Part shown: in pieces, positions 1 to 55,464 of the stretch | Numbering within the stretch: the stretch's first letter is position 1 | Layout of the letters: each line of letters begins with the position of its first letter | NCBI GenBank assembly: GCA_963741205.1 | Contig: CAVUHW010000027.1 | Location: forward strand, 96,001 to 160,000 | Source of the DNA: Nitrospirota bacterium | GTDB taxonomy: Bacteria; Nitrospirota; UBA9217 | Length of the DNA stretch: 64,000 bases | Direction: 5' to 3' | Notes under the pieces: model-generated | Database searches by the model: none | The model's input: only the letters and a program-made list of their open reading frames with translations | What the model was told of the DNA's origin: nothing | Translations under genes and position numbers: made by a program

Positions 1-470
1 CAAAAAGAAAAAACGACCTGCCAGGCGGAGATCGTCGGTAGTGCGGCGTTCACCCTGCACTCGCGCGAGCACTCGTCAGCGCTGGGTGCAGGCGGAGTGC
101 CGAGTGGAGAGTGGAATGGCAGTGAAGCACTATGGGCTACGAGATCCACATGGGCACGAGCACTGGCGACATCGGATTATTCAAGGTAAGAAGGCTGTCT
201 TCAGACTCCGCACTCCCAACTCCTAACTTCGAGCTGATTTTGGACGGTTCGATGAACGGCAACTGCTGGGGGACCTATCTGCATGGCATATTTGAAAACG
301 ATTCGTTCCGCAACGTTATTATCAATTCCGTCAGGGAACGAAAGGGTTTGCCCCCCGTGCAATCATTTGTGAGTTATTCAGGCTTAAAGGACCGGGCGCT
401 TGACAGACTCGCGGAAACAGTCAGGGAAAACCTTGATATGAGATTTATCGAAGGAATGATCGGGCTATGA
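1..470 (+). CDS. cobQ: Cobyric acid synthase, 3' part (truncated by window start; one frameshift near 130)
   Basis: EKTTCQ...GYEIHMG...[11 protein letters not shown]...[13 protein letters not shown] motifs of the CobQ glutaminase domain. Confidence 0.9.
51..93 (+). repeat. 43-bp hairpin mini-element, copy 1 (inside cobQ, within a heptamer array)
   Basis: CACCCTGCACTCGCGCGAGCACTCGTCAGCGCTGGGTGCAGGC; closely similar copies at 36087, 39312 and 55411. Confidence 0.85.
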
Positions 471-1892
471 ACCAGGCGAGGGGGCGGGGCATAATCATCG
501 CCGGGACCCACAGCGGCTGCGGCAAGACGACGGTGACGCTCGGCATCCTTGCGGCCTTCGAGGAAAAAGGGCCTCGCGGTGCAGCCCTTCAAGGCCGGCC
601 CCGATTTCATCGACTCGGGCCTTCACCGGCTTGTATCGGACAGACCGTCGCGAAACCTCGATCAATGGATGTGCGGGCCGGAGTATGTGCTCGAGTGTTT
701 CAGGAGGCATGCGGCGGGCGCCGACATCGCGGTGGTCGAGGGCGTGATGGGCATGTATGACGGCGATTCGAGCACGGCAAGCCTGGCCAGCCTTCTGCAT
801 GTGCCGGTCATTCTCGTGGTCGACGCGTACGGCATGGCCGAGAGCGCGGGGGCGGTGGTCGAAGGATTTGTCAATTTCGGATTGCGGATTCCGGAATGCG
901 GAATGGAGACGGTAAAATCCGAAATTCGCAGATTCGAAATCCGCACTGAAATTCGCCGGTGTGATCTTCAACCGGGTCGCTTCGGAGAACCATTACAAGA
1001 GGCTCAGCGACAGCGTCCGTGACGTGCCGGTCCTGGGTTATCTCCCGAGGGAACTGAACTTCGAGATCCCGCACCGCCATCTCGGCCTCAGCATTGCGGA
1101 AGAAAACCCGATCTGCCGGGGAGAATATCGACAGGCTTGCCGATGCGGTCATCCGTCACGTCGATATCGATGCGATCATTCGAGTCAGGCAGACATCCCG
1201 GACGCGGAACATCACGCACCACCCACAGTCAAGGGGCCGGACAAGGAGGGATCCGGGAGCATTCAGGCTCGCCGTTGCCTATGACAAGGCGTTCAGTTTT
1301 TATTATGAGGACAACCTGGATCTGATGCGCGATGCAGGTGCGGAGATCATCCGGTTCAGTCCGCTCGTTGACCGGGCCATCCCGGACCGGGCCGATGCCG
1401 TCTATATCGGAGGCGGGTATCCCGAGCTCCATGCCGAAGCGCTGTCCCGCAACAGGTCCATGCTCGCGTCGGTCCATGCATGGGCCAATGCCGGAAAACC
1501 GCTGTATGCCGAATGCGGCGGGATGATGTACCTTTCGAAGGGCATCCGTGATTTCGACAACAGGTTCTTCGCCATGGCCGGCGTGTTCCCCTTCGAAACG
1601 AGAATGACGAAGAAACCGCGCCTCGGCTACCGCGAGATCCTGCTGAACGAGGACTGCATCATCGGCGCCCGGGGCGAGAGATGCCGGGGGCACGAGTTCC
1701 ACTATTCGGAGATCCGGGAAGGCGCGCCGGGGCAGGTCTATTCGCTGTGCGACAGCCGCGGCAAGGTTCTCCCGGCCGAGGGGTTCCGGTACAAGAACAC
1801 CCTCGCCAGCTACGTCCATGTCCATTTCGGCAGCAACCGGCGTATCGTCGGAACATTTTGCAGGTTTTGGCAAGGGAGAAAGAATCGCATGA
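467..1892 (+). CDS. cbiA: Cobyrinate a,c-diamide synthase (split by several frameshifts)
   Basis: [74 protein letters not shown] across ORFs 467/549/961/1094. Confidence 0.9.
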
Positions 1893-2893
1893 AGGAAAGC
1901 ATCCTGCTTCTTGGGCACGGAAGCCCGAAAAAAGACGCCAACAATCTGGAGCGCGTCGGAAAGATGCTGCACGGCATGCTGCATGCCGGGTGCACGGAGG
2001 ATTGCGTCAAGGTCGCCTACCTGCAGTTTGCCGAGCCTGGCATCATCGGAGACCATCAAGACTTGCGTGGAGCGGGGTGCGAAAAAGATCATTCTTCATC
2101 CTTTTTTCCTGAGCGCGGGCATGCATGTGACCAAGGACATTCCCGGGATGATCGAGGAGGCGCGGGGGCTTTATCCCGGCGTGAACTTTATCTATACCGA
2201 GCCGCTCGGCGATCCATGAGAAACTGGCCCACATCGTAATGGAACGGATCAGCGCAGCGGAGGATCTCGCGCCGGCTGAAATAGAAAAGAGGAGTTTCGA
2301 TATCCTGTCCGCCGAGGCCGATCTGAGCGCTATTCCTTCCGACCGCCTGCCTATCGTCCAGCGCGTGATCCATGCAACCGCGGATTTTGAGTTCAAGAAC
2401 ACGCTGACATTCCACCCGGACGCCGTCGCCTGCGGGACTCAATGCGATCAAGTCGGGAAAGGACATTCTGACCGACGTGGAAATGGTAAGAACAGGGATC
2501 AACAAGAAGCTGCTGTCCCGATGGGGAGGAAAGGTCATCTGCGGAATACAGGAGTCCGGAACCGGGAGCCAGGAGTCAGGAAACAAAGACCAGAGCGGAA
2601 CGAGGGGATCGAAAAGGCGTTACAGGAGAATGACAACATCGGCATCATCGCCATTGGAAACGCGCCTACGGCGCTGATCAGGGCGATAGAGATTTTAAAC
2701 AACCCGGAACTCGCGACGCCGTCTCGCAACCGCTTGTTGTCGGTGTCCCCGTGGGCTTCGTGAAGGCCGTTGAATCAAAGGCACTCCTGGCGTCCCAGCG
2801 GTTTCCGTTCATCACTGCCCTGGGAGGAAAGGCGGCACGCCCGTGGCCGTGGCGATCGTGAACGCATTATTGAAAATGGCAGGCGAGAAGTGA
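1889..2893 (+). CDS. cbiC: CbiX cobaltochelatase - CbiC precorrin-8X methylmutase fusion (frameshifted)
   Basis: LLGHGS, AYLQFAEP, PFFLSAGMHVTKDIP (CbiX), then IEKRSFDI, RVIHATADF, IAIGNAPTAL, PVGFV (CbiC). Confidence 0.8.
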
Positions 2894-2996
2894 AGAATTC
2901 AACATTCACGATTCAAAGTATGAACAGCTGCGGGATTTTGCTTGTTTCCTGACTACTGGCTACTGGCTGCTGGCCACTGCCTCCGACGCTCATGCC

Positions 2997-3672
2997 ATGC
3001 ACATATCTGAAGGCATTTTGCCTTTTAACTGGGCGGCGCTCTGGTTTCTCGTTGCCCTGCCGTTTGTCGCGATATGGATTAAACCGGTTGAAGAAGATGT
3101 CTTCGGCCGACCTGTCGTTCAAGCCCCTCGTCGGCCTCATGGCTGCGGTCGTCTTTATCATCTCCTGCATGCCGGTACCGGTGCCTACCGCCGGAACCTG
3201 CTCCCATCCCTGCGGGACGGGAATATCAGGGATACTGCTTGGTCCTGCTATCAGCGTACTGATCACGGCTGCGGCTCTCCTGATTCAGGCGCTTTTTCTC
3301 GCCCACGGGGGGTTGAGCACCTGGGGTGCGGATATCGTGTCCATGGGCGTGGTCGGTTCCTTTGCCGGATACTTCACCTTCAAGGCTTTGCGCGCTTTAA
3401 AAATAAACATGGCGGTTGCGGGATTCGCGGCGGGGCTCTTTGCCGACTGGGCGACCTATCTTACCACGTCCGTGGAACTTGCCTCGGGCATACGGGGGGA
3501 CTCGCCGTTTCTCCCGCTCTTCTGGAAAATCGTGATCGCTTTTATCCCGACTCAGCTTCCGCTGGGGATACTGGAAGGAGCGATGACATCCGGCATGGTC
3601 GTCCTCCTGTATAAAAAGCGGCCTGATCTTCTCGTCAAAATGGGCGTGGTAAAAGCGGGGGAAGCGATATGA
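2997..3672 (+). CDS. cbiM: ECF cobalt transporter substrate-binding component; probable signal peptide from about 2890; one frameshift
   Basis: MHISEGILP N-terminus, GTCSHPCGTG, QALFLAHGGLSTWGA, PTQLPLGILEG. Confidence 0.9.
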
Positions 3673-4056
3673 AGGGCCAAAGGTCAGAGGTCAAGGGTCA
3701 GAGGTACAGAAACAATACGGCAATTTAGCGGTGCTACGTTTCGTCTGTCTTGCTGCTTGCTACTTCTGTCATCGATGCCTTCCGCCGCTGAAAAATGGCA
3801 GGGCGCCGACGAAGCCGTGGTCGAGAAGTTCGCAAAGGAACACGGCAGGGAGGCGCGGGAACCGTTCATCAATACCAACCAGGGAGATCTTCTTCTTTTC
3901 GTTTTTCTGACCGCGGGAGCGATCGGAGGTTTTGCTGCGGGTTATTATTGGAGAAAACTGACAGAGGCCGGGACAGAGAAAGATAACAGCCATGGACATG
4001 CTGACCGAATATCCAAGAAAAAGATCATATCCTTTCAAGGGTCGATGCGCGGTTAA
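3669..4056 (+). CDS. cbiN: Cobalt transporter accessory membrane protein (ends approximate, frameshifted)
   Basis: KWQGADEAVVEKFA...GDLLLFVFLTAGAIGGFAAGYYWR; lies between cbiM and cbiQ. Confidence 0.7.
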
Positions 4057-4745
4057 AATACTGCTTGCCCTGGTCCTTTTGGCAATGGTCTTGAGTTGCC
4101 GCGGATTCATGTTTCCCGCCGCAACGGCGGGGCTCGCGTTTTTATTGTGCATCACGATAAGGGTCCCTTTGCGGATTTTTGTTCTCAGATTTTCCGAGCC
4201 TCTGTTTATCGCCGCTATCGTGCTCGTCCTGAAGCTATTTTCCTCCGGACATGACGCGCTATTTTCCCTGAACATCTTCGGCCTCCATCTTGTCGGGCAC
4301 CGGGACGGCCTTCTTGAAGGACTTATCATCTGCAACAGGATCATCGGCGCTGTTTCCATCGTTGCCCTGCTCGGATTTTCCACTCCCTTTACCGAAATCA
4401 TGGCAGGCCCTTTCCTGGCTCAGGGTCCCGAAGGGTTTCATAGAGATTCTAATGTTCGCCTACCGATATATCTTCATGCTTTTTGAGGACGCGATGGTCA
4501 TCTACCAGGCTCAGAAAAACCGTCTCGGTTATTCTACGATCAGGAGAGGGCTGAGCTCATTCGGTACACTGGCGGGGTCTCTGATAATCAAGGCTTTTGA
4601 CCACAGCCAGAGCACCACCGTCTCAATGGTCCAGCGGGGGTACGACGGCACCATCCCGACGCTCCGGCACAAGCCTTTCCGGTCTTCGGAGGTGCTGGCG
4701 TCCGCGCTCTTTCTGCTTGTCATGGGGTTTGTATGGAGGCTATAA
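3992..4745 (+). CDS. cbiQ: ECF cobalt transporter T component (frameshifted)
   Basis: Multi-TM protein; FAYRYIFML, AQKNRLGY, MVQRGYDG. Confidence 0.85.
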
Positions 4746-5571
4746 TCAGGCTCTCGGTCGTCCTGAGTTCCTTTTCCTACGCCGACGGGACAGAAGCCCT
4801 GAGCGATATCAGGCTTGACATCAGAAAAGGCGAGTTCACAGGCATTCTAGGCTCGAACGGCTCGGGTAAAACGACGCTCCTCAAGGTGATGGACGGGCTG
4901 ATTAAGGATTACCAGGGCAGCGTTCTCCTCGACGGGGCCGACATCAGGAAACTGTCTCCGAAGGAGATCTACCGGAAAGTCGGCCTCGTGTTCCAGAATC
5001 CCGATGACCAGCTCTTCGCCCCGACCGTGCTGGAAGACGTCTCCTTCGGCCCCATCAATATGGGCTTTTCCGAAGATGAGGTCGTCGGCGGGTAAAGGCG
5101 GCACTGCAGGACGTGGAGATGGAGGGCTTCGCGAAGAAGTCCATCCATAACCTGAGCTTCGGCCAGAAAAAACGAATCTGCATCGCCGGTCTCCTGGCGA
5201 TGGGGCATGAGATCCTGCTCCTGGATGAGCCGACAGCCGGACTGGACCCCATGGGCGAATACAGGATGATGGACCTTTTGACAAGGTTGAACAGGGAAAA
5301 AGGCGTAACCGTGGTCATGGCGACCCACAGCGTCGACCTTGTTCCGTTGTTTCTCGACCGCCTTTATATCCTCAGCAAAGGACGCATCGCACGCAGCGGG
5401 CCTCCGGAAGAGGTTTTTACGGCGCCCGAGGACATGGCCCAGGTGAAACTCAGGCTGCCCCGGATCGCGGAGCTGATTTACCGGCTCAAGCATGAGGACG
5501 GGATGCCGTTCGGAAAAATCCCGCTTACCGTCGGCGAGGCGCGGCGGGAGATTCTGAGAATTGCGAAATGA
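4733..5571 (+). CDS. cbiO: ECF cobalt transporter ATPase (frameshift near 5090)
   Basis: GSNGSGKTT, VFQNPDDQLF, LSFGQKKR, LLLDEPTAGLDP. Confidence 0.9.
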
Positions 5572-5637
5572 AAATTGAAATGTTTAAATTAGAAATTACC
5601 CATCTGCAATTTCCCATTTACAATCGAGCGAAGCGAC

Positions 5638-6156
5638 ATGCGTAGAGGATACATTCAGGTCTATACCGGAAACGGAAAAGGCAAGACTACCGCCGCGCTT
5701 GGACTTGCCATTCGGGCGGCGGGCGCAGGGCTCAGGATATTCATAGCCCAGTTCATCAAAAAACGAAAATGCAGTGAACATGTCCTCCTTGAGGAGCTAA
5801 GCGACCGCATAACCGTCAAGCAATACGGCAAGGGTTTCATCATGCGGGCAAAGCCGTCAAAAGCGGATTTTCAGGCCGCGCGGGACGGGTATGAGGAAGT
5901 CCGGAACGTGATGCTCTCGAAACAGTACGACGTCGTTGTCCTCGATGAGGCAAACGTGGCCGTGCATTACGGGTTGATTTCGGAACATGACCTTCTGGAG
6001 CTTATGACGGAAAAGCCCAAGAGCGTGGAACTGGTTATTACCGGCCGGTACGCGGGCGAAAAGGTCATGCAGGCGGCGGACCTCGTAACGGAGATGCGAG
6101 AGATCAAACATTACCGGGAACAGGGAGTAACGGCGAGGCGTGGAATCGAAAAATAA
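5638..6156 (+). CDS. cobO: Cob(I)yrinic acid a,c-diamide adenosyltransferase (BtuR/CobO family)
   Basis: QVYTGNGKGKTTAALG, AQFIK, VLDE, ELVITGRYA, ADLVTEM. Confidence 0.92.
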   Translation: MRRGYIQVYTGNGKGKTTAALGLAIRAAGAGLRIFIAQFIKKRKCSEHVLLEELSDRITVKQYGKGFIMRAKPSKADFQAARDGYEEVRNVMLSKQYDVVVLDEANVAVHYGLISEHDLLELMTEKPKSVELVITGRYAGEKVMQAADLVTEMREIKHYREQGVTARRGIEK

Positions 6157-7258
6157 AAAACTCCGGTCCGGATTTACGACCGGCGCCTGCGCTGCGGCGG
6201 CTGCCAAAGCGGCGGCGATGCTTTTGTTGCGGAATGAAAAACAGATCGAACAGGTGGAGATTCCGTTTCCGGATGGGAGCAGGTTTACGTTCAAGATTCA
6301 TGATGCAGGATGCAGGATTCAAGATAATACCGCATTCGCCTCGGTCATCAAGGATGCCGGAGACGATCCCGATGTAACGAATGGCGCGGAGATAGTGGCT
6401 ACTGTTCAGGGTTCAGAGTTCGGAGTTCACAATGAAATAATGCCCCTAATCATCATCAATGGCGGCAAGGGAGTAGGGACGGTTACCAAACCGGGTCTCG
6501 CCATCCCTGTTGGTGAGCCGGCAATTAACCCGGTTCCGCGGAAGATGATCACAGAAGCCGTAGCCGAAGCGATGAGAGAGCTCAATCCGCAATCCGCAAT
6601 CCGAAATCCGCAATTGGAAGTCACCATCTCCGTCCCGGCAGGCGAAGAGCTGGCAAAGAAAACCTTGAACCACCGGCTTGGCATTGTCGGCGGCATCTCG
6701 ATCCTCGGTACCACGGGTATCGTACGCCCCGTATCCGCCGAGGCCTGGACAGCGACCATCACGGCGTCCATGGACGTGGCAAAGGCGGCCGGTCTCAGCG
6801 CAGTGGTCATCTCTTCGGGGCGGACTTCCGAAAAGGCGCACATGAAGAAATATCATTTCCCCGAGGAAGCTTATGCGATGATGGGCGATTACCTTGAATT
6901 TTCGCTGAAAGACGCGAAACAGCACGGATTCCGCGAGGTCCATCTCTGCGCTCAGTGGGCCAAGATGCTCAAAGCCGCCATGGGCACGCCGCAGACCCAT
7001 GTACGGAACGGCGCCCTGGAAGCGGCCGAGGCCGCGGATTTTTTATTGCGTCTCGGAATCGATCTCCCCCGTGATAAGACGTTCAACACGTCACGAGAGA
7101 TCTTCGATTACATTCAATCCGCAGTCCGCAATCCCCAATCCGCAATGAAAACGGTTTGTACTGCGGCGAAGCGCTATGCCGAGGGGATCACCTTGGGGAT
7201 CCCGGTCATCGCCCATCTCGTATCCTATGAGGGAGACATCCTTGCAGAAAGCGAATAA
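6140..7258 (+). CDS. cbiD: Cobalt-precorrin-5B C1-methyltransferase
   Basis: LRSGFTTGACAAAAAKAA, KDAGDDPDVTNG, AINPVPR, LGIVGGISILGTTG. Confidence 0.95.
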   Translation: MESKNKKLRSGFTTGACAAAAAKAAAMLLLRNEKQIEQVEIPFPDGSRFTFKIHDAGCRIQDNTAFASVIKDAGDDPDVTNGAEIVATVQGSEFGVHNEIMPLIIINGGKGVGTVTKPGLAIPVGEPAINPVPRKMITEAVAEAMRELNPQSAIRNPQLEVTISVPAGEELAKKTLNHRLGIVGGISILGTTGIVRPVSAEAWTATITASMDVAKAAGLSAVVISSGRTSEKAHMKKYHFPEEAYAMMGDYLEFSLKDAKQHGFREVHLCAQWAKMLKAAMGTPQTHVRNGALEAAEAADFLLRLGIDLPRDKTFNTSREIFDYIQSAVRNPQSAMKTVCTAAKRYAEGITLGIPVIAHLVSYEGDILAESE

Positions 7259-8531: not shown

Positions 8532-8532
8532 T

Positions 8533-10034: not shown

Positions 10035-10040
10035 TACCCA

Positions 10041-10119: not shown

Positions 10120-10134
10120 CTCACGGATTGCGGA

Positions 10135-13587: not shown

Positions 13588-14946
13588 ATGGAAGTCCGGT
13601 GTGAAAGCTGTAACAAGCTTTTCCGTGTTTCAAATGACAAGATTACCGGCAAGGGCATCAAGTTCACCTGCACGCGCTGTGGTGAATATGTGAAGATCAC
13701 ACGGGAAGCGTTCGAGGACTATACGCTTGCCCAATTTACAGTCTCCGCGCTCGACGTGTTGGAGAACCGACAGGCCTCGCCTCCGGCTGGGCCGGTCCCG
13801 GGACCGGAACCGGCTGATGCCGGAATGACCGCAGCCCTTGCTTCCGTCGGGGCGGAATCGGTCGTCGCGGAAGCGATCGGATCAGAGCAGAAGACCGACG
13901 AGCTTCCGTCTCCGCTGATGCCGGATTTCCTGCAGGAGCGGGAAGAAACTCCTTCTCCCTTCGAAGACTCAACTCAGAATACCGAGTTGCAGCCTCCACA
14001 CGAGCAGGCGTTTCCCGACGAGCCGGTCCAGGAAGAACTGCGGGTAGAGCTGGAAAACGAGCCGTCGTCCCCCGTTGGGCCGGAACCGCAGCCAGAAGCA
14101 GTCATTGCAGCGGAACCGAAAAAAGAACCTGTCCCCGAACCTGAAATGAAGGAGCAAGCCCAAACGGAATCCGCGCTGAAATCCGAGCAGGTCCTGGAAC
14201 CGACGTCAGAGCAAAAACCAACGGCAAAACAGGAAGACATTGCTGGGCTTATGACGGGAGCCGCCGGTCCGGAGTTCGAGGCAAAGCCCGCGGCAACAGC
14301 CGTTCCCGTTGCCGATGTTTCGGTTGCGGCCCCCAAAAAAGAGCCTGTCCGTCAGTCTGGGACGATGCCGCAGAAAACTGTAACAGCAACAATCCCGGCT
14401 GAAGCCGCACGTTCCGGCAGTTTGGTAAAGGTACTGTTGGCGGCGCTCGTCATCCTGGGCCTCGGCGGGGGCGGAGCATATCTGTATATGCGGTCATCTC
14501 CCTCCGCAAAGCAAGAATCCCAAACCGGAATGGTTTCAGCAGAGGGTTTGCAGATCGTCAATGCGGTAGGTTCTCTGCAGGAAAACGGCGATCTTCTAGT
14601 ATCGGGCGAGCTGGAAAACACGACCGACAGGCCGCGGGACGACTGGTACATCGTCGTCGATGTTTTAGACGCCACGGGTGTGGTGCTGCACAAGATTCGC
14701 ATGCTGAACGGCAAGCAGATATATACGAGAAGCGACTACGAGATTCTGGCCAAGCGGGGCGCGAATGTGCAGGACTTGAAGGAAAAAGCGCTTCAGCCGC
14801 ATGGCGTTGTTTTACCGCCGAAGGGAAAGGCGGCCTTCGAGATGAGATACTTGCAGCCGCCGGCCAGTATAGCCAGCTTTAACGCTGCGCTTCAACCTTT
14901 CAACCCTGCACTCCTGCTCAAGGAGATCGCGGAAGATACGAAATAA
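13588..14946 (+). CDS. Zinc-ribbon (MJ0042-finger-like) membrane protein with Pro/Glu-rich linker
   Basis: MEVRCESC...FTCTRC N-terminus, acidic/Pro linker, single TM helix, C-terminal extracytoplasmic domain. Confidence 0.75.
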   Translation: MEVRCESCNKLFRVSNDKITGKGIKFTCTRCGEYVKITREAFEDYTLAQFTVSALDVLENRQASPPAGPVPGPEPADAGMTAALASVGAESVVAEAIGSEQKTDELPSPLMPDFLQEREETPSPFEDSTQNTELQPPHEQAFPDEPVQEELRVELENEPSSPVGPEPQPEAVIAAEPKKEPVPEPEMKEQAQTESALKSEQVLEPTSEQKPTAKQEDIAGLMTGAAGPEFEAKPAATAVPVADVSVAAPKKEPVRQSGTMPQKTVTATIPAEAARSGSLVKVLLAALVILGLGGGGAYLYMRSSPSAKQESQTGMVSAEGLQIVNAVGSLQENGDLLVSGELENTTDRPRDDWYIVVDVLDATGVVLHKIRMLNGKQIYTRSDYEILAKRGANVQDLKEKALQPHGVVLPPKGKAAFEMRYLQPPASIASFNAALQPFNPALLLKEIAEDTK

Positions 14947-17371: not shown

Positions 17372-17454
17372 CCCCGTCGAGGGGCGCTGCAGCAGTCACC
17401 GCAAGGTGGGTCTGTCAGGCTCGATGGGGGGTTCAACATGCAGCAACGGCGCCC
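17372..17454 (+). ncRNA. SAH riboswitch
   Basis: CCGTCGAGGGGCGCTGC...CAGGCTCGATGG...CAACGGCGCCC fits the SAH riboswitch core including the pseudoknot pairing; directly upstream of ahcY. Confidence 0.85.
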
Positions 17455-17468
17455 ATTCATTAACCTGA

Positions 17469-35986: not shown

Positions 35987-36203
35987 CGTCATCCCCGAAA
36001 GATTCTATCGGGGATATGGTTTGCTTGGACCAAGGCAACCACGTTGCCGTGAGTTCGCCGCCACACTCTGCTCTAGCGCAGACGCACACCCTGCATTCGC
36101 GGCGTAGCACTCATACCGCTGAGCGCAGGCTCCAAAACGCTGTGTGCAGGCGGTCGGCTCGATCCATAAACACCGGATTCTCGATTGAACCTTCGGGAAT
36201 GAC
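35987..36203. repeat. CGTC-type REP-like element containing two nested copies of the 43-bp mini-element (36064-36151 outer, 36087-36130 inner)
   Basis: CGTCATCCCCGA..TCGGGGAT ... TTCGGGAATGAC termini; internal CACCCTGCA...GCAGGC. Confidence 0.75.
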
Positions 36204-36227
36204 AAGTCATCACAAGGAAGGGATATC

Positions 36228-36873: not shown

Positions 36874-39299
36874 TCAAAGGCGTCGTGCAGGGAGTGGGCT
36901 TCAGGCCATTCGTCTACAACCTTGCCGGATCCCTCGGGCTCAAAGGCTATGTGACCAACACGACCGAAGGAGTCTTGATCGACGTCGAGGGGCCGAGGCT
37001 GAGCGAGTTTGTCGAAAGGCTCCGGAACGAAGCCCCTCCGCTTTCGCGGATCACCGATGTTTCCGTGACCACCCTTCCGCAGAGAGGATATCCCGATTTC
37101 GCCATTCACGAGAGCACGGACCTGGCCGGCAACTCGCCGTTTACCCTCGTCTCGCCCGATATCTCGATCTGTGACGATTGCCTGAGAGAACTGCTTGATC
37201 CAGGCGACCGGCGTTATCTCTATCCGTTCATCAATTGCACGAACTGCGGACCGCGTTATTCCATCACGAGGTCCATTCCCTATGATCGCCCGAACACGAC
37301 CATGGCCGGCTTTACCCTGTGTCCCGACTGTCTCGCGGAGTATCAGGACCCCAGGAACAGAAGGTTTCATGCGCAGCCGAACGCCTGTCCTGTCTGCGGA
37401 CCGAAGGTTGAGTTTCGATTGCGGAATGCGGATTGCGGATTGCGGAATAGAGAAGCTATAACAGAGTCTGTGAATCTACTAAAAAACGGAGGCATCGTTG
37501 CCATCAAAGGCATCGGCGGGTTTCATATCGCCTGCGATGCGGCCAACGACGAGGCAGTAAGGAGATTGCGGAAGAAAAAGAGGAAGAGCAACAAACCCTT
37601 TGCCGTGATGTCGCCCGATATCGCCTCGATCGAGCAGTTTTGCGAGGTTTCCCCGGTCGAGCGGGAGACCCTGGTATCAAACAGGCGCCCGATTGTGTTG
37701 CTGCGCAAGAAAGCCGGATGTTCGCTGTCTGATGCGGTATCGCCGAACAATAAGGACATCGGCTTCATGTTGCCCTATACTCCCCTGCATTATCTTTTGT
37801 TCCGTCATCCCTGCGATTCTGGCACGGACCTCGATCGACCGCACTTTAATGCCCTGGTGATGACGAGCGGCAATCTTTCGGAAGAGCCGATCGTCCGCGA
37901 TAACGATGAGGCTATGCAGAAGCTCTCCGATATCGTCGACGGTTTTCTCCTGCATGACCGGGACATCTTCATGCGCGTCGATGATTCGGTCGTACGGATT
38001 GCGGATTTCGACAAATCTACTCCGAACTCTGAACGCGTAACCGTAAACTCTGAACTAGCATTTCTTCGCCGTTCCCGTGGTTATGCGCCTGACCCGATCA
38101 TGCTTCATGACGACGGACCTGAAGTCCTGGGCTGCGGCGCAGACCTGAAAAATACCTTTACCCTGACCAAAGGCGGGTTCGCTGTCCCCAGCCAGCATAT
38201 CGGCGACATGGAAAATTACGAGACCATGAAGTTTTTTGAAGAGTGTCTCGCCAATCTCAAGGCCGTGTACCGGGCGGAACCGGTCGCGATCGTCCATGAT
38301 CTGCATCCCGGATACCTTTCGACGCAATGGGCGATTGAAAAGGGGGGAGGTGTCAAGGGCCAGGGATCAGGAATACCCGAAACCCGGAACTCGCAACTCG
38401 CAACCCGCAACGCGCAACCAACTGTGCGTCTGTTCAGCATTCAGCACCACTACGCCCATATCGGGTCTGTGATGGCCGAACACGGACTCTCTCACAAGGT
38501 CATCGGCGTTGCCTTTGACGGCACCGGCTACGGCACTGACGGAAACCTTTGGGGAGGAGAGTTTCTCGTTGCCGATATCGAAGGATTCGAGCGGGCGGGG
38601 CACTTCGACTATGTCCCGCTTCCCGGCGGCGAATCGGCAATCCGCGAACCGTGGAAAACCGCGGTGAGTTTTATCGCAAAAGCCGGCAAGGACGGCGCGT
38701 GGGGCTTGCTCGATCAGGCCGGATTCGTCCGAAAATACGGCAGAGAAACGATCGAAAGGCTCATGATCGTCTCTCGCTCCCGTGAATTATCTCCTCTCTC
38801 ATCAGGGGCGGGCAGGCTCTTCGACGCCGTCTCAGCGCTTCTCGGCATCTGCGACCTCAATACCTTCGAAGGGGAAGCCGCCATGGCCCTTGAATCCTTT
38901 ACGCAAGAGGGAATCGACGACGAGTATCAGGTTGAGTTCACGCAGGAAAACGGTTATACTATCACGGATTTTTCTCCTGCAATCATCGGGATCATCCACG
39001 ATCTGGATCGTACGTCAAAAGCGGTCATCTCGACAAAGTTTCATAACACTGTGGCAGCTGTTGTACGAACGATGACCGGGAAGATCAGCCGACAATACGG
39101 TCTCAAGGACGTGGCCCTGAGCGGAGGCACATTCCAAAACAGGTATCTCTTGAAGAGAGTGATGCGACTTCTTTCCCAGGACGGCATGAGCGTATGGGTG
39201 AACCGCGCGATGCCGTGTAACGACGCTTGCATATCCCTGGGACAGGCGTATCTGGTGAGGGAAAGACTTAAGAAAGGCATTGAGGCACACGTCGTCTAA
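36849..39299 (+). CDS. hypF: Carbamoyltransferase HypF
   Basis: GVVQGVGFRP, CTNCGPR, RFHAQP, KGIGGFH, SQHIGD, QHHYAH, DGTGYG, SGAGRLFDA. Confidence 0.96.
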   Translation: MVTRAQIVVKGVVQGVGFRPFVYNLAGSLGLKGYVTNTTEGVLIDVEGPRLSEFVERLRNEAPPLSRITDVSVTTLPQRGYPDFAIHESTDLAGNSPFTLVSPDISICDDCLRELLDPGDRRYLYPFINCTNCGPRYSITRSIPYDRPNTTMAGFTLCPDCLAEYQDPRNRRFHAQPNACPVCGPKVEFRLRNADCGLRNREAITESVNLLKNGGIVAIKGIGGFHIACDAANDEAVRRLRKKKRKSNKPFAVMSPDIASIEQFCEVSPVERETLVSNRRPIVLLRKKAGCSLSDAVSPNNKDIGFMLPYTPLHYLLFRHPCDSGTDLDRPHFNALVMTSGNLSEEPIVRDNDEAMQKLSDIVDGFLLHDRDIFMRVDDSVVRIADFDKSTPNSERVTVNSELAFLRRSRGYAPDPIMLHDDGPEVLGCGADLKNTFTLTKGGFAVPSQHIGDMENYETMKFFEECLANLKAVYRAEPVAIVHDLHPGYLSTQWAIEKGGGVKGQGSGIPETRNSQLATRNAQPTVRLFSIQHHYAHIGSVMAEHGLSHKVIGVAFDGTGYGTDGNLWGGEFLVADIEGFERAGHFDYVPLPGGESAIREPWKTAVSFIAKAGKDGAWGLLDQAGFVRKYGRETIERLMIVSRSRELSPLSSGAGRLFDAVSALLGICDLNTFEGEAAMALESFTQEGIDDEYQVEFTQENGYTITDFSPAIIGIIHDLDRTSKAVISTKFHNTVAAVVRTMTGKISRQYGLKDVALSGGTFQNRYLLKRVMRLLSQDGMSVWVNRAMPCNDACISLGQAYLVRERLKKGIEAHVV

Positions 39300-39302
39300 G
39301 CG

Positions 39303-39438
39303 GTCATTCCCGCCTGCGCCCAGCGCTTACGAGTGCATAGCGCGAGTGCAGGGTGAAGGCCCCTATCGGGAATCCATTGTTTGTCGGTTTTTAGATGAAT
39401 TGAAGAGCCACTGGATTCCCGCCTTCGCGGGAATGACG
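39303..39438. repeat. CGTC-type REP-like element with a 44-bp mini-element inserted (39312-39355, minus strand)
   Basis: GTCATTCCCG[insert]AAGGCCCCTATCGGGAATCC ... GGATTCCCGCCTTCGCGGGAATGACG. Confidence 0.8.
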
Positions 39439-47404: not shown

Positions 47405-47573
47405 GTGATCGAGGGAATGCCGGAAATATTTGCAAACTGAAAAAGAGATTAACGTCAAAATATTTATTTGTCAAGCGGGAAATAGCGGAAAATAGACGGA
47501 AATATTAAAGTTGCAAAGGGAAGCATTCACGTGTACAATTTTGTCGCGTTCAGATTATAACGAGGTGCATAAC

Positions 47574-48959: not shown

Positions 48960-48984
48960 AACAAATTCTTAAGTAAGGAATCAA

Positions 48985-49085
48985 CACCTTGACGCCGCGA
49001 AGGCGCTAATGTCGCGAAGGAGAGCAAAAGATTCTTTCGGTTTTAAAAACGCGCATCAAGGATTCTCTTTGCGGCCTTCGTGCCT
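48985..49085. repeat. Degenerate inverted nonamer arrays (CGCGAAG/CTTTGCG family)
   Basis: GCCGCGAAGGCGCTAATGTCGCGAAG ... CTTTGCGGCCTTCGTG; related to the inner arrays at 54281-54388. Confidence 0.55.
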
Positions 49086-49136
49086 GGTAAATTATCTTTC
49101 CATTCTGATCTGAGTAAAAATAGCTCCTCACTGACT

Positions 49137-49625: not shown

Positions 49626-50022
49626 TTGAAGACAGTTGTTTGGAAGATGGGGCGCGATGTGCGTGTCAGAGCCAGCCTGCTGAAACTTATCCGGACGTAA
49701 TACCTTCTAACGAGCTGAATCTTAAAAACCAAATTTGTTATCAATATGTTTAGCATATTTATCCTCCTTCGCAGCTTCATTTGGTAACTCCCAGTCCGTT
49801 TTTTTATAATTTAAATTCATTAATATCTCTTAAATAACAGTAAAATAATGGCTTTGATTTAACAACTTACTTCAACTTTATGGTCAGCCTCTACTGTCAT
49901 TAAACCCTTCTTAATTACAGTTAAAGTGCATACAATAATAAAACAAGCCGCAACTCTTCTAAGCTAAACTTTGAATCGACAAAAGAGATAAACTTTCAGC
50001 GAGCCTACGAGCCGCCTTTCCG

Positions 50023-50051
50023 TTGACAATCCAGGATAGATAGTATAAAAT
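50023..50051 (+). promoter_or_regulatory. Sigma70-type promoter
   Basis: TTGACA-17nt-TAAAAT. Confidence 0.6.
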
Positions 50052-50129
50052 TTCGACACTCAAACGCCGGATTCTGTTATGTTCCCGGTGATGCCGCTTG
50101 GCCCGTCACCATCATCATGAGGAGTTTGC

Positions 50130-50882
50130 ATGTTTTGTCCCCACTGCGGTAAAGAAATATCTGAAGGCCAGGCATTCTGCCCGCACTGCGGCATGCGGCT
50201 TGGAGAACCCGCGCCGCTCCCATCCGGAGGAAGAACAAGGACTCCCTGGGAGGACCGCGAGAACGTCGGCTTCCTCTCCGGCTTATTCAAGACCCTGAAA
50301 GAAGTCCTTTTCGCGCCCTCGGACTTCTTCAGGAAGATGCCCGTGACCGGCGGGTTGACGGACCCGCTGCTCTATGCGCTGATCATCGGCATGGCGGGCC
50401 TGATGTTTTTTTATTTTTGGGACACCCTGCTCCATGATTCCATGCAGCATTTCATGACCCGTGAACTTCGGGACGTGTCTGAGCGAGGCATGTTCAGGGA
50501 TCAGGGCCCTTTCGCGACAGCCCTGACTCCTTTTTTACTCATCCTCTGGCTCTTTGTCGCATCCGGCCTACTCCACGTGTTTCTCCTCCTGGTTCGAGGC
50601 GCAAAGGCCGGCTTTGAGGCGACATTCCGGGTTGTGGGATACAGTTTATCGCCCTTTGTCTTCCTGATTATCCCGGTCTGCGGCATGCCGGTCACGGCAT
50701 TGTGGAGCATAACGCTTGCCGTCATCGGCCTCAAGGAAGCGCACGAGACGTCGGGCGGTAAGGCGGTTGTAGCAATTCTTTTTCCCTTCCTTCTCTGCTG
50801 CGGCATTCTCACTGCGACCATAATGGTATTCATGGGCGCCATAGCGGCGTCCTTCGGCAGCATGATGCATGGGTATTGGTAG
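50130..50882 (+). CDS. Zinc-ribbon plus Yip1-like membrane protein
   Basis: CPHCG..FCPHCG, TPWEDR, P.DFF, FEATFRVVGY, about 5 TM. Confidence 0.8.
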   Translation: MFCPHCGKEISEGQAFCPHCGMRLGEPAPLPSGGRTRTPWEDRENVGFLSGLFKTLKEVLFAPSDFFRKMPVTGGLTDPLLYALIIGMAGLMFFYFWDTLLHDSMQHFMTRELRDVSERGMFRDQGPFATALTPFLLILWLFVASGLLHVFLLLVRGAKAGFEATFRVVGYSLSPFVFLIIPVCGMPVTALWSITLAVIGLKEAHETSGGKAVVAILFPFLLCCGILTATIMVFMGAIAASFGSMMHGYW

Positions 50883-50902
50883 GTAAACTCATAGTTTACG
50901 GT

Positions 50903-51310
50903 ATGCGGATCATCTTCGAAAAGAGGACCCCCGGCCAGATCGAGTTCGGCATCATCTACGGCGGGATCGCCCTGCTTGCCCTTCTTGCTGCCCGGCTCGA
51001 CCGGGCATTATCAATGGCGCCAACCTGTGTCTTCAAGGGACTCTCCGGACTTCCCTGTCCCACCTGCGGCTCCACGCGGTCGTTGGTGCATCTGTCTCAT
51101 GGCGACATCGTTTCCGCCCTGACCATGAACCCTATCGTCACCCTTGCCGTCGTTTTCGCTATCCTCTTTTTTTTCTACGCCTTGATCACGCTGATATTCA
51201 ACTTTCGGAGGATCGGATTCCTCTTAACGGAGCGTGAGAAAGACACCATAAGAATCACAGCAGTGGTCCTCCTTCTCGCCCAGTGGGGCTGGCTTATTCG
51301 AACGATCTAG
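50903..51310 (+). CDS. DUF2752-like membrane protein
   Basis: CVFKGLSGLPCPTCGSTRS..HGD...NP. Confidence 0.8.
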   Translation: MRIIFEKRTPGQIEFGIIYGGIALLALLAARLDRALSMAPTCVFKGLSGLPCPTCGSTRSLVHLSHGDIVSALTMNPIVTLAVVFAILFFFYALITLIFNFRRIGFLLTEREKDTIRITAVVLLLAQWGWLIRTI

Positions 51311-51416
51311 AAAATCACTGAAATTAATTTTTGTCCCGACTCAAGGGACACGGCTGCCATAACCGCCGGAGTTTTTGATTGCAAAGAGCCCTGAATTCCG
51401 TTACAATTCAGACCCT

Positions 51417-52886
51417 ATGGCATACGAATCACTAAGAGATTTCATATCCGTCCTGGAAAAGAACGGCGAACTCGTCCGAATCAAGGCTGAAGTGGACGCG
51501 GAACTGGAGATTGCGGAGATCACGGACCGCGTTTCGAAAGAAAAGGGGACCGCCAACAAGGCCCTTTTCTTCGAGAAGGTCAAAGGATCGAAATTCCCCG
51601 TCCTCACCAATGCCTTCGGTTCCATGAAGCGCATGTGCCTCGCCCTCGAGGTTTCGGAACTCGACGACATCGGACAGCGGGTCAAGGAGATCATCGATCC
51701 CACGAATCTCTTTCCGGGGCCGGGGGCAGGGATCATGGAAAAACTGCAGACTCTGCCGAAGCTGGCGGAACTCGCCAATTTTTTCCCCAAGACCGTGAAG
51801 AAGGCCCCCTGCCAGGAAATCGTTCTAACGGGCGAACAGGTAGACCTGTTTAAAATTCCCGTGCTCAAGTGCTGGCCCGCGGACGGGGGGCGGTTCATCA
51901 CGCTTCCCATGGTCTGCACCGTCGATCCGGCCACGAGGATCACGAACGTCGGCATGTACCGGATGCAGGTCTTCGATCACCAGACCACGGGCATGCACTG
52001 GCACAAACACAAGGACGGCGCGCGCCACTACCAGCACTACGAGGCCGCGGGCAAGCGTATGGAAGTGGCCGTTGCCATCGGCGGCGACCCCGCAATCATC
52101 TATTCCTCCACCGCGCCCCTGCCTCCGGCCATCGGCGAGTTTATCTTCGCCGGATTCCTGCGAAAGAAGCCGCTCGAGGTCGTCCCGTGCAAGACCGTAG
52201 ACATCCGGGTGCCGGCTGAGGCCGAATTCATACTTGAGGGCTTCGTCGATCCGGGTGAACGAAGGAGGGAAGGGCCGTTCGGAGACCATACCGGTTACTA
52301 TTCCGAGGCCGACCAGTACCCTGTGTTCCACATAACGGCGATCACTCACCGGAAAGACGCCATCTACCCCGCAACCCTGGTAGGGCGTCCGCCGCAGGAA
52401 GACGCCTATCTCGGCAAGGCGACCGAGCGGATATTCCTGCCGCTCCTCCAGATGGTTGCGCCCGACATCCTGGACATGGACATGCCGGTCGAGGGGGTGT
52501 TCCACAACAACGTGATCGTGAAGATCAGAAAAAGGTATGCCGGCCACGGCAAGAAGGTGATCAACACGATCTGGGGTACGGGCATGCTCATGCTCTCCAA
52601 GTTCGTCGTCGTTTGCGACGAGGACGTGAATATCCACGACTATTCCGAAGTGACGTGGAAGGTCATGAACCACGTAGACCCGCAGCGCGACGTGGTGATC
52701 GCCGACGGACCGCTCGACATCCTCGATCACTCCTGCCCGCAGATCGGCTTCGGGGGCAAGATGGGAATCGACGCCACGCGCAAAGGGCCCGGGGAAGGCT
52801 TCATGAGGCCCTGGCCGGACGAGATCAGGATGGACCCGCAAGTCCAACAGCGGGTGGAAGAGCGGTGGAAGGAGTACGGGTTCTAG
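51417..52886 (+). CDS. ubiD: UbiD-family decarboxylase (menaquinone biosynthesis type)
   Basis: NVGMYR, MHWHKHK, EGPFGDHTGYY, GRPPQED, KMGIDAT. Confidence 0.88.
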   Translation: MAYESLRDFISVLEKNGELVRIKAEVDAELEIAEITDRVSKEKGTANKALFFEKVKGSKFPVLTNAFGSMKRMCLALEVSELDDIGQRVKEIIDPTNLFPGPGAGIMEKLQTLPKLAELANFFPKTVKKAPCQEIVLTGEQVDLFKIPVLKCWPADGGRFITLPMVCTVDPATRITNVGMYRMQVFDHQTTGMHWHKHKDGARHYQHYEAAGKRMEVAVAIGGDPAIIYSSTAPLPPAIGEFIFAGFLRKKPLEVVPCKTVDIRVPAEAEFILEGFVDPGERRREGPFGDHTGYYSEADQYPVFHITAITHRKDAIYPATLVGRPPQEDAYLGKATERIFLPLLQMVAPDILDMDMPVEGVFHNNVIVKIRKRYAGHGKKVINTIWGTGMLMLSKFVVVCDEDVNIHDYSEVTWKVMNHVDPQRDVVIADGPLDILDHSCPQIGFGGKMGIDATRKGPGEGFMRPWPDEIRMDPQVQQRVEERWKEYGF

Positions 52887-52905
52887 GACAAACACCAACC
52901 CATCT

Positions 52906-54225
52906 ATGCTGGCATTCGACATCATCCTGATTTTTTCCTTGATCATCCTGAACGGATTTTTCGCCGCGTCCGAGATTTCCCTCATCTCGCTCAGAAAAAG
53001 CCGGGTCCGTCACCTCGTAAAGACCGGTCATCACGCCGCGAAGAGGGTGCAGAAGCTCCAGGAGGAGCCGGAGCGCTTCCTCAGCACGGTCCAGATCGGC
53101 GTGACGCTGATCGGGACGCTTGCCGCGGCGATAGGCGGCGTCATCGCGGTGACGCACATCAAGCCGCTCTTTCTGTCAAGCAGGTTCGTGTTTGTCCAGA
53201 AAGCGGCCGAACCTCTCTCCGTGGCAGTCGTCGTCGGCCTGATCACCTATGTGACGATCGTGATCGGGGAACTCGTCCCGAAATCGCTCGCAATCCGGCA
53301 CTCGGAGAAGATAGCGTTTTTTACGTCGGCGTTCATCGATTTTCTCTCGCGGACGCTCTCCTTCATACTGCGGGTACTCACCCTTTCGAGCAATTGCGTG
53401 CTGAGTGTTTTCGGGCTGGAGCATGGCCAGGAGCCGAACTTCATCTCCGAGGACGAGGTCAAGTACCTTATCCGGGAAGGCCGAAATACCGGCGTCTTCG
53501 AGCCGTCCGAAGAGGACCTGATCCACAGCGTCTTCCGCTTCACCGACACGGTGGTGAAAGAGGTCATGGTGCCCAGGACGGAGATCGTCGCCGTCGAGGC
53601 GGACAGCGACATCGACACCATCCTGCGCACCATGAATGAAAAAGGGTTTTCCCGGCTGCCGGTATACAGCGAGACCATCGACAACATAATCGGCATCGTG
53701 TTCCTCAAGGACATCCTGACGCTCCACATGGAGAACCGCCCGCTCACGCTTGAGGACGTGCTCAGGAAACCTTATGTCGTACCGCCGAACAAGAATGTGA
53801 GCGTTCTCCTGAAGGAGATGCGCGAAAAACACATTCATCTCGCCCTCGTGGGCGATGAATACGGCGGGACCGACGGCCTGGTCACCATGGAGGACTTGAT
53901 CGAGGAAATCGTCGGGGACATCCGCGATGAACAGGAAAAGGAACTGAGGGAGATCCATGAGATCGCAGCAAACCGGTACATCGTCGACGGCAGGACGGAC
54001 ATCGGAAAGGTGAATGAGAAACTGGGTGTCCAGCTCCCCGAGGACGAATTTGAAACCGTGGGGGGCTTTGTGCTGGGTCTCTTCGGAAGACTGCCCGCAG
54101 AGGGCGACCAGGTCCGTCACAATAATCTGCTGTTCACCGTGCTCCGGCTCCGGAGAAACCGCATTTCCCGCGTCCGGGTGCTGAAATATGCACCGGAAAA
54201 CCAGGAACCTGAAGAAGAGAGTTGA
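52906..54225 (+). CDS. Hemolysin/CNNM (TlyC-CorC) family protein
   Basis: NGFFAASE, GELVPK, VMVPR, FSRLPVY, DEYGG, EDLIEEIVG. Confidence 0.92.
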   Translation: MLAFDIILIFSLIILNGFFAASEISLISLRKSRVRHLVKTGHHAAKRVQKLQEEPERFLSTVQIGVTLIGTLAAAIGGVIAVTHIKPLFLSSRFVFVQKAAEPLSVAVVVGLITYVTIVIGELVPKSLAIRHSEKIAFFTSAFIDFLSRTLSFILRVLTLSSNCVLSVFGLEHGQEPNFISEDEVKYLIREGRNTGVFEPSEEDLIHSVFRFTDTVVKEVMVPRTEIVAVEADSDIDTILRTMNEKGFSRLPVYSETIDNIIGIVFLKDILTLHMENRPLTLEDVLRKPYVVPPNKNVSVLLKEMREKHIHLALVGDEYGGTDGLVTMEDLIEEIVGDIRDEQEKELREIHEIAANRYIVDGRTDIGKVNEKLGVQLPEDEFETVGGFVLGLFGRLPAEGDQVRHNNLLFTVLRLRRNRISRVRVLKYAPENQEPEEES

Positions 54226-54470
54226 ACCACGGGTCCCGCGCGGACGCGAGACACACGGATAGCATAAAGAAAAACAATTTGCGCGCAAAGCCGCTAAGTC
54301 ACAAAGAAAAAACAAATCATGTTTTCGGTTTAAATTCAAGATTCCAAAGATGTTGATTCTCTTTGCGTGCTTTGCGACTTTGCACGAGACAGGCCTAAGC
54401 AATTACAATTTATTTTAAGATTTAAATCCGTGTTCATCCGTGCGTCCCGTCGAAGACGGAACCCGTGGTT
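54225..54470. repeat. Composite nested inverted-repeat element (MITE-like)
   Basis: Terminal AACCACGGGTCCCG / CGGAACCCGTGGTT; ACACGGAT/ATCCGTGT units; inner CGCAAAG/CTTTGCG units. Confidence 0.75.
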
Positions 54471-54500
54471 ACATGTTTTTTAGTTGATGAAAGGGTGACA

Positions 54501-55385
54501 ATGACGACACCGCTGGTACTTGAGACAAATCTCCAAGGACTGAAACCGCCCCGCCGGGGAAAAGTCCGGGACATCTACGACTTGGGCGATACCATGCTCA
54601 TCATTGCGACGGACAGAATCTCGGCATTCGATGTCGTCCTGCCCAACGCCGTTCCGGAGAAGGGAAGGGTCCTGACCCAGATCTCGAAATACTGGTTCGG
54701 GCAGACCGAAAAGATCGTAAAGAACCATGTGATCTCCACGGCGGTAAAAGATTTTCCTCCGGCGTGCAAGCCGTACGCGGCCATCCTTGAAGGCAGAAGC
54801 ATGCTCGTAAAAAAAACGCAGCCCCTTCCCGTGGAGTGCGTTGTCCGCGGCTATCTGACCGGGTCCGGTCTGAAGGAATATAAGGTAATGGGATCGGTCA
54901 GCGGCGTCAAACTGCCCGCAGGCCTGACGGAGGCATCCCGGCTGCCGGAGCCGATCTTTACCCCATCGACCAAGGCGGAAGTCGGAGAGCACGACGAGAA
55001 CATAGATTTTAATACGGTGGTAAAGCTAATCGGCAAAGAAACGGCGGACAAGATCAAATCCTATACGCTTTCGATCTATACAAAGGCGTGCGAGATCGCG
55101 GAACCTAAAGGGATCATCATCGCCGACACGAAACTCGAATTCGGCATCTATCAGGGCGAGGTCATCCTGATCGACGAGGTGCTCACGCCGGATTCCTCCC
55201 GGTTCTGGCCCCGGAACGATTATAAAGTCGGAGTTTCGCAAAAGAGCTTCGACAAACAGTTTGTCCGCGACTATCTTCTCTCCCTCACCTGGAACCAGAA
55301 GCCGCCGGCCCCGGTCCTTCCCGACGACGTAGTCATGAGAACGAGCGAAAAGTACCTTGAAGTGCTCAAGATGCTGACGAGCTAG
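54501..55385 (+). CDS. purC: SAICAR synthetase
   Basis: [55 protein letters not shown]. Confidence 0.97.
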
Positions 55386-55396
55386 GGTTCTTTTCC

Positions 55397-55464
55397 CGTT
55401 ATTTCGGCTTGCCTGCACCTAGTGATTACGAATGCTTGGCGCGAGTGCAGGGTGTCCGGAATCG
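55397..55464. repeat. REP-like hairpin with a 44-bp mini-element inserted (55411-55454, minus strand)
   Basis: CGTTATTTCGGCTT[insert]GTCCGGAATC. Confidence 0.75.

Follow-up and report, generated by a model that had tools for sequence, protein, structure and literature searches.

Can a hairpin of little more than forty nucleotides be a mobile element in its own right, and if so, how does it enter its host sites? This question is raised by a 64,000-nt stretch of DNA (C27:96001-160000; hereafter the window) of a Nitrospirota metagenome-assembled genome (MAG; G000) of 4.27 Mb, which consists of 50 contigs, has a G+C content of 56% and a completeness of 84%. The closest relatives of its CobQ protein are encoded by MAGs labelled Nitrospirota/Thermodesulfovibrionales, with identities of at most 75%. 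The original prediction for the window, made from its letters alone, described four copies of a small hairpin that inserts into other repeats, together with an older copy split by one of these four; inspection of the sequence at each position confirmed all of them (Table 1). We conclude, with a probability that we put at about 0.55, that the hairpin represents a family of non-coding, single-hairpin mobile elements of 43-45 nt that insert 5' of a C without target duplication.

The 16-nt 5' arm of the element matches the window at six positions when up to three mismatches are allowed, against 0.78 expected, and none of 100 shuffled sequences reached six matches; one of the six, at position 14902, is probably due to chance. 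A profile built from the four window copies detected 71 full-length copies in the 4.27-Mb genome and, at a loose threshold, 99 5' halves and 86 3' halves. Most of the per-copy tests on this home genome cover 70 copies, and tallies of 181 copies add copies from other genomes. Contigs that pair up at 88-97% identity (C19/C21, C28/C46/C47, C36/C37, C16/C17, C24/C25/C26 and others) make up about 0.6 Mb of the MAG. They probably derive from related strains binned together, or else may be large duplications, and they inflate the repeat controls and copy counts.

The element is 43-45 nt long and has the consensus CACCCTGCAyTCGCGC-(2-5 nt)-GCACTCrTAAnCGCTGGGyGCAGGC. Its inverted repeat is made up of CCTGCAC/GTGCAGG plus GCGC/GCGC, and its parts are an unpaired 5' tag of 3 nt, a bulged, roughly 12-bp stem and a 13-14-nt loop that is conserved (..GCACTCRTAA..). 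The tag is CAC in 101 of the 181 copies, CGC in 44 and TAC in 13, and the 3' end is GGC. Standard pairs are present in 60-70 of the 70 copies at 11 of the 13 stem positions. At pair 9-38, A-T is found in 36 of 70 copies and A.C in 30, and in 67 of 70 copies positions 11 and 36 form a T.G wobble, with pairing possible on the top strand alone. Positions 10 and 26 are linked: 40 copies carry C10-G26, 24 carry T10-A26 and six have other combinations (Fisher's test over the four C/T x G/A classes, p=6e-14), and both haplotypes occur in many genomes. Pairing between these two positions was considered and rejected, since their neighbours cannot pair; the linkage is therefore read as the descent of two old subfamilies. 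No Rfam family matches the element, and the literature searched contains no description of it (the supplements of PMC3733652 and PMC6006769 possibly list related repeats), so that, as far as searched, it is indeed not a named family.

The ends of the element determine how its insertion has to be understood, and here the original prediction had allowed for a target duplication of 0-1 nt. The first base is inherited with subfamily markers: position 39 is G in 141 of the 151 copies that start with C, and 17 of the 20 copies among the 181 that start with T carry an A at this position. The first base thus belongs to the element, which means that the host C is the one at the 3' side and that no target base is duplicated. 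In T-first copies (those of the nested TGGCCTGTA-type, L073 and L117) it is likewise the 3' C that restores the host repeat, and in 19 of 20 copies ending in AAGA, AAGT, GAGA or ACGA the next base is a C. The surrounding target consensus is weak (Y-[A/T/G]^C-R-R-R), with C nearly excluded at positions -1 and +1. Hence, the element inserts immediately 5' of a host C and without target duplication; the lower of the two values predicted is correct and the upper one is not, because the first base travels with the element.

This junction rule was evaluated by an excision test, in which each copy was removed in silico with zero, one or two Cs kept and the product was then matched to uninterrupted paralogous repeats. 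When one C was kept, uninterrupted paralogs were restored for 32 of the 70 copies (382 matches), as against 7 copies (8 matches) when no C was kept and 9 copies (24 matches) when two were kept; excision leaving 3+3 nt of the element restored a single copy of the 70. Under strict criteria the corresponding numbers were 13, 0 and 3 of 70 for one, no and two Cs, respectively, and swapping the kept C for G, A or T in the strict test gave 34-36 spanning matches instead of 60. For random windows, the duplicated contigs inflated the controls of this kind to 10-15%, which made them uninformative. The copy at 39312 illustrates the outcome: its excision with one C kept yields a site that matches three uninterrupted paralogs. 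That retaining one terminal C restores the host, as had been claimed for the window, therefore holds for the window hosts and genome-wide.

Empty sites were found as well. Of the four loci of a repeat about 170 nt in length, two are filled and two empty, and the cobQ genes of seven relatives lack the element; the search for empty sites that had been suggested thus yielded one orthologous case in addition to the paralogous ones. Another type of host site is the element itself. Both outer halves flank 9 of the 70 copies, and at least one half is present in 14 of 70 by a looser rule. Moreover, three near-identical copies of the TGGCCTGTA..GGCCACAGG subfamily sit at GCA^CTCR of three different outer copies. 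Since these near-identical inner copies are located in different outer copies, they must stem from separate events.

The other hosts are mostly repeats. The REP (repetitive extragenic palindromic) family REP-A (ATTCCCGA..TCGGGAAT) hosts 11 of the 70 copies, at the loop/3'-arm junction, and seven copies are located a few bases 5' of TGGAT-type REPs; the remaining ones occupy heptamer arrays (GCGGATT, CACGGAG, GAACACA and others), repeats of other kinds or unique sites. The host types of the home genome recur in other genomes and in two viral contigs, and the type of site occupied by the copy at 55411 is also filled in other genomes (L067, L069, L144, L145 and L110). Empty versions of these hosts are numerous: the ATTCCCG..CGGGAAT REP, the host family of the 39312 copy, has 210 matches over the two strands, corresponding to about 105 loci, the intact ATTCCGGGTCAAGCCCGGAAT REP (the host type of the 55411 copy) is present at 19 loci in the genome, and the window alone contains about 14 period-7 arrays. 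A flanking 15-mer that is seen at least three times in the genome was found for 20 of the 70 copies, compared with 108 and 119 of 3000 random positions (3.6-4.0%). Likewise, a period-7 score of at least 12/14 was obtained for 7 of 70 and 12 of 107 copies versus 1 and 5 of 2000 random C positions. These enrichments bear out the proposed preference for structured or repetitive DNA. Two further measures were discarded as uninformative, namely the multiplicity of flanking 12-mers, for which the background is too high, and the location of the junction inside any perfect 6-bp hairpin, for which 14-15% of random sites qualify. Based on crude calls of open reading frames (ORFs), 52 of the 70 copies are intergenic. 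These show no transcription-sense bias, with 18 copies in sense and 13 in antisense orientation between co-directional genes, 12 between divergent and 9 between convergent genes. Of the 18 "in-ORF" copies, five ORFs were inspected, all of which look spurious, and only the cobQ copy is convincingly genic.

The cobQ copy adds a net 42 nt (14 codons) and leaves the frame open up to ..NGSEAL, as had been predicted, and this end aligns with ..QGAL-K-GYEIHMG of relatives. The linker in which it is located has about 23 codons in the seven relatives without the element; here it has 34 codons plus a frameshift. This frameshift is a separate change of 1 nt near window positions 130-134, about 40 nt 3' of the element. 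It directly precedes the conserved GYEIHMG motif, which lies in a different frame that has a TGA at 123-125. The frameshift is not caused by the element, and may reflect a true pseudogene, a recoding site or an assembly error. With respect to the hosts named in the original prediction, the two REPs and the older copy were recovered, and what had been called a heptamer array in cobQ is a degenerate run of five 7-mers.

Table 1. Copies of the hairpin element in the window, their host repeats and the cobQ fragment (coordinates are window positions)
Feature	Position	Strand	Remarks
Element copy, 43 nt	51..93	+	In variable linker of cobQ; target GTT^C^GGA within degenerate 7-mer run
cobQ, C-terminal part (GYEIHMG...)	132..470	+	Out of frame with N-terminal part (from before the window to 189)
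Older degenerate outer copy, 5' half	36064..36086	+	Last letters ..GCA; 3 mismatches
Inner element copy, 44 nt, CAT..CTCATA subfamily	36087..36130	+	Nested in loop of older copy
Older outer copy, 3' half	36131..36151	+	3' half-model match C27:132135-132151 = window 36135-36151
Host REP 3' arm of 39312 copy	39302..39311	-	GGGAATGACC on minus strand
Element copy, 44 nt	39312..39355	-	Loop/3'-arm junction of REP hairpin ATTCCCGA..TT^C^GGGAAT
Host REP 5' arm and loop of 39312 copy	39356..39376	-	GGATTCCCGATAGGGGCCTT on minus strand
Host REP arm of 55411 copy	55401..55410	-	AAGCCGAAAT on minus strand
Element copy, 44 nt	55411..55454	-	Loop of degenerate ATTCCGG..CCGGAAT-type REP, GGA^C^AAG
Host REP arm of 55411 copy	55455..55462	-	ATTCCGGA on minus strand

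The window is rich in other repeats. Its heptamer arrays are short and intergenic (for example 874-905, 6583-6614, 7115-7146, 37417-37448 and 38375-38419) and have units such as ATTGCGG, CAATCCG, ACCCGCA and GTTCAGA; such arrays abound and resemble the STRR heptamers of cyanobacteria. Several REP families share a TGG..GAC frame, i.e., the ATTCCCG..CGGGAAT, ATTCCGGGTCAAGCCCGGAAT, TGGATACCTGCTTTCGCAGGTATGAC and GGGGAGGG-type repeats, examples of which are found at 39398-39430 and 36190-36215; no RAYT gene (encoding a REP-associated tyrosine transposase) flanked by these families was found in the genome. The window also contains an S-adenosyl-homocysteine (SAH) riboswitch at 17373-17461 on the plus strand (58.5 bits; gathering score 37).

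The distribution of the element was determined by an exact-pattern scan. With one genome per species, at least 104 loci were detected, nearly all in Nitrospirota MAGs, with at least 111 full copies having sharp ends. Of 63 further genomes of this Nitrospirota family, 33 contain the exact pattern, and none of the 337 genomes sampled from 43 other families in the phylum does; a reversed-pattern control gave no matches in any genome of this phylum sample. Within the genus, 8 of 14 genomes contain the element. Among the genomes searched, the element is restricted to one Nitrospirota family. The window copy shares 85-93% identity with copies in other genera, compared with about 68% for the adjoining coding DNA. 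Viral contigs contain it at four loci in two records, in AAGACAC-type heptamers; three of these loci (L211, L213 and L214; the fourth is L212) are in one 38.5-kb IMG/VR record that is 98% complete according to CheckV, and neither viral record contains a Y1 gene.

In the reading that we favour, the element integrates in one orientation, directly 5' of a host C or, when read on the other strand, 3' of a G. Its preferred targets are Cs that would be unpaired in or beside other hairpin repeats, including those in REP loops, at loop/stem junctions, within a few bases on the 5' side of a REP stem and, at GCA^CTCR, in the loop of the element itself; heptamer arrays also supply target Cs. Some of the filled host repeats have probably spread on as composite units. 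The ends would be cut and rejoined on single-stranded DNA (ssDNA) by a trans-acting HUH nuclease/transferase of the "peel-and-paste" type, a step that we regard as doubtful since no Y1 gene that was tested follows the element. A single-strand mechanism is consistent with the lack of a target duplication, the one fixed base at each junction, the T.G wobble that pairs on the top strand and a bias towards the G-rich strand. In the home genome the top strand of the element lies on the locally G-rich strand in 40 copies versus 20 (p=0.0135), in G019 the numbers are 38 versus 24 (p=0.098), and pooled they are 78 versus 44 (p=0.003). The lack of duplication and the fixed junction base, taken together with the unpaired 5' tag, the bulged hairpin and the unpaired targets, resemble by analogy the pattern of the IS200/IS605 and RAYT enzymes, which read a hairpin, choose a cleavage site of 2-5 nt by means of a 5' tag and rejoin single strands (PMC3479197; PMC8266576).

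Several observations weigh against a mobile hairpin moved in this way, as do the host-linked variant and the results on candidate enzymes given further below. The strand bias is weak, the replication strand is poorly approximated by local GC skew, and copies in clusters do not count as independent. Hardly any compensatory change is seen (3 cells in 13 pairs), and the predicted ssDNA folds, which correspond to the CCTGCAC/GTGCAGG hairpin, have weak z-scores of -0.7 to -2.4 relative to shuffled sequences; the hairpin therefore rests on a conserved inverted repeat and not on covariation. The claim that the element folds into one hairpin can be kept, as the inverted repeat is real and the predicted folds agree with it, weak as their z-scores are. 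Furthermore, no filled/empty polymorphism was found between close strains, and both "allelic" contig pairs of the MAG are filled. Public Logan contigs from four runs (shares of at most 0.13), which are short, contain no clean empty-site joint; they pile up over 39310-39357 and include a few low-confidence joints, such as one from 36020 to 36169 with two letters in between.

The original prediction had named a HUH/Y1 (RAYT-like) enzyme encoded elsewhere as a possible mover. The genome contains three Y1 genes, two of which are IS200/IS605 tnpA copies. The third encodes a 282-aa RAYT-like protein that passes the NCBIfam model for REP-associated tyrosine transposases (87.7 bits; cut-off 80). This gene (G000:C23:4963-5808, minus strand) encodes a C-terminal extension and is flanked by its own 14-bp inverted repeats, AGGGTCAGGTCTTT, which are unrelated to the element. 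In relatives it is multi-copy (L182-L210), with 30 matches in G019, 18 in G020 and 16 in G003. Its copy number and its own inverted repeats assign it to the TIRYT type of PMC3733652 and PMC6006769; the gene behaves as an insertion sequence and not as a single-copy RAYT gene. The two IS200/IS605 copies (C34:18326-18688 and C26:373741-374103) are near-identical, and in each of them tnpA lies beside a tnpB-like frame.

None of these genes follows the element. No element copies are present within 400 nt of the three Y1 genes of the genome, and the 93,864 bases around 30 RAYT-like genes of relatives contain a single element. Among 63 genomes, the TIRYT gene and the element are both present in 20, only the element in 13, only the gene in 14 and neither in 16 (odds ratio 1.76, p=0.32). 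When only the genus is considered, the corresponding numbers are 7, 1, 1 and 5 (p=0.026), an association that vanishes family-wide. When any Y1_Tnp match (PF01797) is counted, 26 of 33 element-bearing genomes have one versus 27 of 30 element-free genomes, so that 7 of the 33 element-bearing genomes are without a match; G192 (88% complete) has 12 matches to the element pattern and no Y1 gene, and G001 and G002 have 28 and 22 Y1_Tnp matches, respectively, and no element. We therefore rejected the TIRYT protein as the mover, given the absence of flanking copies and of family-wide co-occurrence, as well as the IS200/IS605 TnpA, given its unrelated ends and lack of co-occurrence. The flanking of a transposase or nuclease gene by element copies, put forward as a check, was not seen at the Y1 genes of the genome, and both flanking and co-occurrence tests speak against the enzyme that had been proposed. 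Copies may outlive their enzyme and MAGs are incomplete; as they stand, the negative Y1 tests leave the HUH step unsupported. It is possible, if unlikely, that the mover is an enzyme other than Y1/HUH, or a HUH enzyme acting in a new single-hairpin mode, which would paste the folded 44-nt hairpin 5' of an exposed C in ssDNA.

Other explanations do without an independent transposon. The hairpin might have entered each host family once or a few times and then have been carried along while mobile REPs and arrays multiplied, in which case it would not currently be an independent transposon. Variant forms give this view some weight: the 45-nt form is present in 8 of 11 REP-A-hosted copies versus none of 15 copies hosted by GCGGATT heptamers and thus tracks the host class, so that part of the copy number may come from composite spread. 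In addition, three TACCC..CACAGG copies have one host repeat in common (GACGACCG..), and near-identical filled hosts recur in other genomes (L065/L102/L129/L136 and L148/L149/L157). However, filled REP-A loops are as diverse as empty ones, with ATAGAGGCATT occurring in both states; near-identical inner copies are nested in clearly different outer copies; and the element is found in at least six unrelated host types, a coding gene and viral contigs. First insertions would still be needed, all of them obeying one junction rule. Composite spread certainly contributes, yet neither the junction rule common to unrelated hosts nor the independent nested hits can be explained by it, and we consider it improbable as the whole account. 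Alternatively, template switching during replication might copy the hairpin into a stalled hairpin or a slipped heptamer array, which would agree with the targets being hairpins and slippage-prone arrays and with the lack of an enzyme that tracks the element. Its ends are nevertheless identical to the base in about 170 of 181 copies, a single C is the only microhomology available, the orientation is fixed relative to asymmetric hosts and subfamily haplotypes are inherited intact; template switching is accordingly very unlikely in our view.

The high conservation across genera, loop included, and the mostly intergenic location would also be expected of a functional hairpin, such as a protein-binding site, an RNA stabiliser or a terminator, that is kept by selection and moved by recombination or gene conversion. 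The lack of sense bias, with 12 of 70 copies between divergent genes, does not fit such a role, nor does a distribution that is patchy even within the genus. The insertion of one copy into the loop of another would disrupt the latter; cobQ contains a copy; and no Rfam family matches. We give this explanation only a slim chance. A slightly slimmer one is left for a classical miniature inverted-repeat transposable element (MITE), a deleted derivative of a DDE-type insertion sequence with CCTGCA../..TGCAGG as terminal inverted repeats and a 1-bp duplication of C. The ends of the element are indeed inverted repeats, it is non-coding and dispersed, and a C is present on both sides in 141+10 of 181 copies. 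This C is not a duplicated target base, as shown by the inheritance of the first base with the subfamily. A DDE-derived MITE would be expected to show a target duplication of at least 2 bp and to have a parent insertion sequence with identical terminal inverted repeats. Moreover, the genome has no longer element with these termini, since 5' and 3' halves more than 100 nt apart belong to separate full copies, and in G019 the half-sites among the matches listed are nested pairs only, about 85-90 nt apart. A length of 43-45 nt is also far below the 70-300 bp given for bacterial MITEs (PMC3733652).

Having set these alternatives against a mobile single-hairpin element, we compared the latter with known systems. 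Like REPs, the element is a mainly extragenic, imperfect palindrome of small size and high copy number, and its stem is preceded on the 5' side by a short unpaired tag. REP families nested in other palindromes, and others placed in frame within ORFs, have been described (PMC3733652). The sites at which RAYTs cleave ssDNA flank the hairpin on either side, comprise 2 nt (C^T or C^A) and are selected through the 5' tag (PMC3479197; PMC8266576), and the one-base junction signature of the element resembles these cleavage sites. In contrast, REPs are tagged with GTAG or CGTC at the foot of the hairpin (PMC3733652) and the element with CAC, CGC or TAC; the element is longer (43-45 nt versus 20-40 bp); it forms no REPtron (a Y1 gene flanked by copies) and does not co-occur with Y1 genes; and nesting in its own loop is frequent and position-exact.

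IS200/IS605 elements insert without duplication beside a short fixed motif, have hairpin ends that are read on one strand and show an orientation bias linked to replication (PMC3479197; PMC6006769). The element likewise inserts without target duplication, and its orientation bias is mild. It differs in being a single hairpin with one fixed base (C), whereas IS200/IS605 elements have two distinct subterminal hairpins and a target of 4-5 nt; the IS200/IS605 ends of the genome are unrelated to it, and the tnpA-rich genomes G001 and G002 lack it. The Rickettsia palindromic elements (RPEs) are palindromic repeats that may occur in frame within protein-coding genes (PMC3733652). The cobQ copy parallels these, but only 1 of 70 element copies is convincingly genic, and taxon and sequence are unrelated. 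RPE-1 is reportedly larger than the Nitrospirota element.

The small dispersed repeats (SDRs) SDR4-6 of Nostocaceae cyanobacteria, said to have been described by Elhai et al. in 2008, are reportedly very small mobile repeats of 21-27 nt that are nested in one another and in heptamer arrays, and we know of no mover for them. By this definition, the element is similar in being very small and nested in its own kind and in heptamer arrays; it differs in its length of 43-45 nt, its Nitrospirota host and its unrelated sequence. SDR5 uses the HIP1 palindrome as insertion site, and among HIP1-rich cyanobacteria no SDR was found outside Nostocaceae, according to PMC5861425. By its tag and the absence of a REPtron the element falls outside the definition of a REP, and it differs from SDRs in size and taxon. 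In our reading it is a very small mobile element akin to REPs or SDRs, one of a kind already known.

To our knowledge, the multiplication of very short palindromic repeats such as REPs and SDRs is poorly understood, and we know of no mover for the nested, heptamer-seeking kind. The Nitrospirota element is an unusually clean case, with base-exact ends, a one-base junction rule, defined targets that include its own loop, and two haplotypes, and 64 related genomes with and without it form a comparative set. These properties make a gene search and an oligonucleotide cleavage/joining assay directly feasible. For annotation, the element means that inserts can sit in frame in genes, as in cobQ, and that they inflate and fragment repeat families in MAGs. 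If the mover were indeed to use a non-Y1 or a single-hairpin chemistry, this chemistry would also explain the nested heptamer-array hairpins of the cyanobacterial SDRs.

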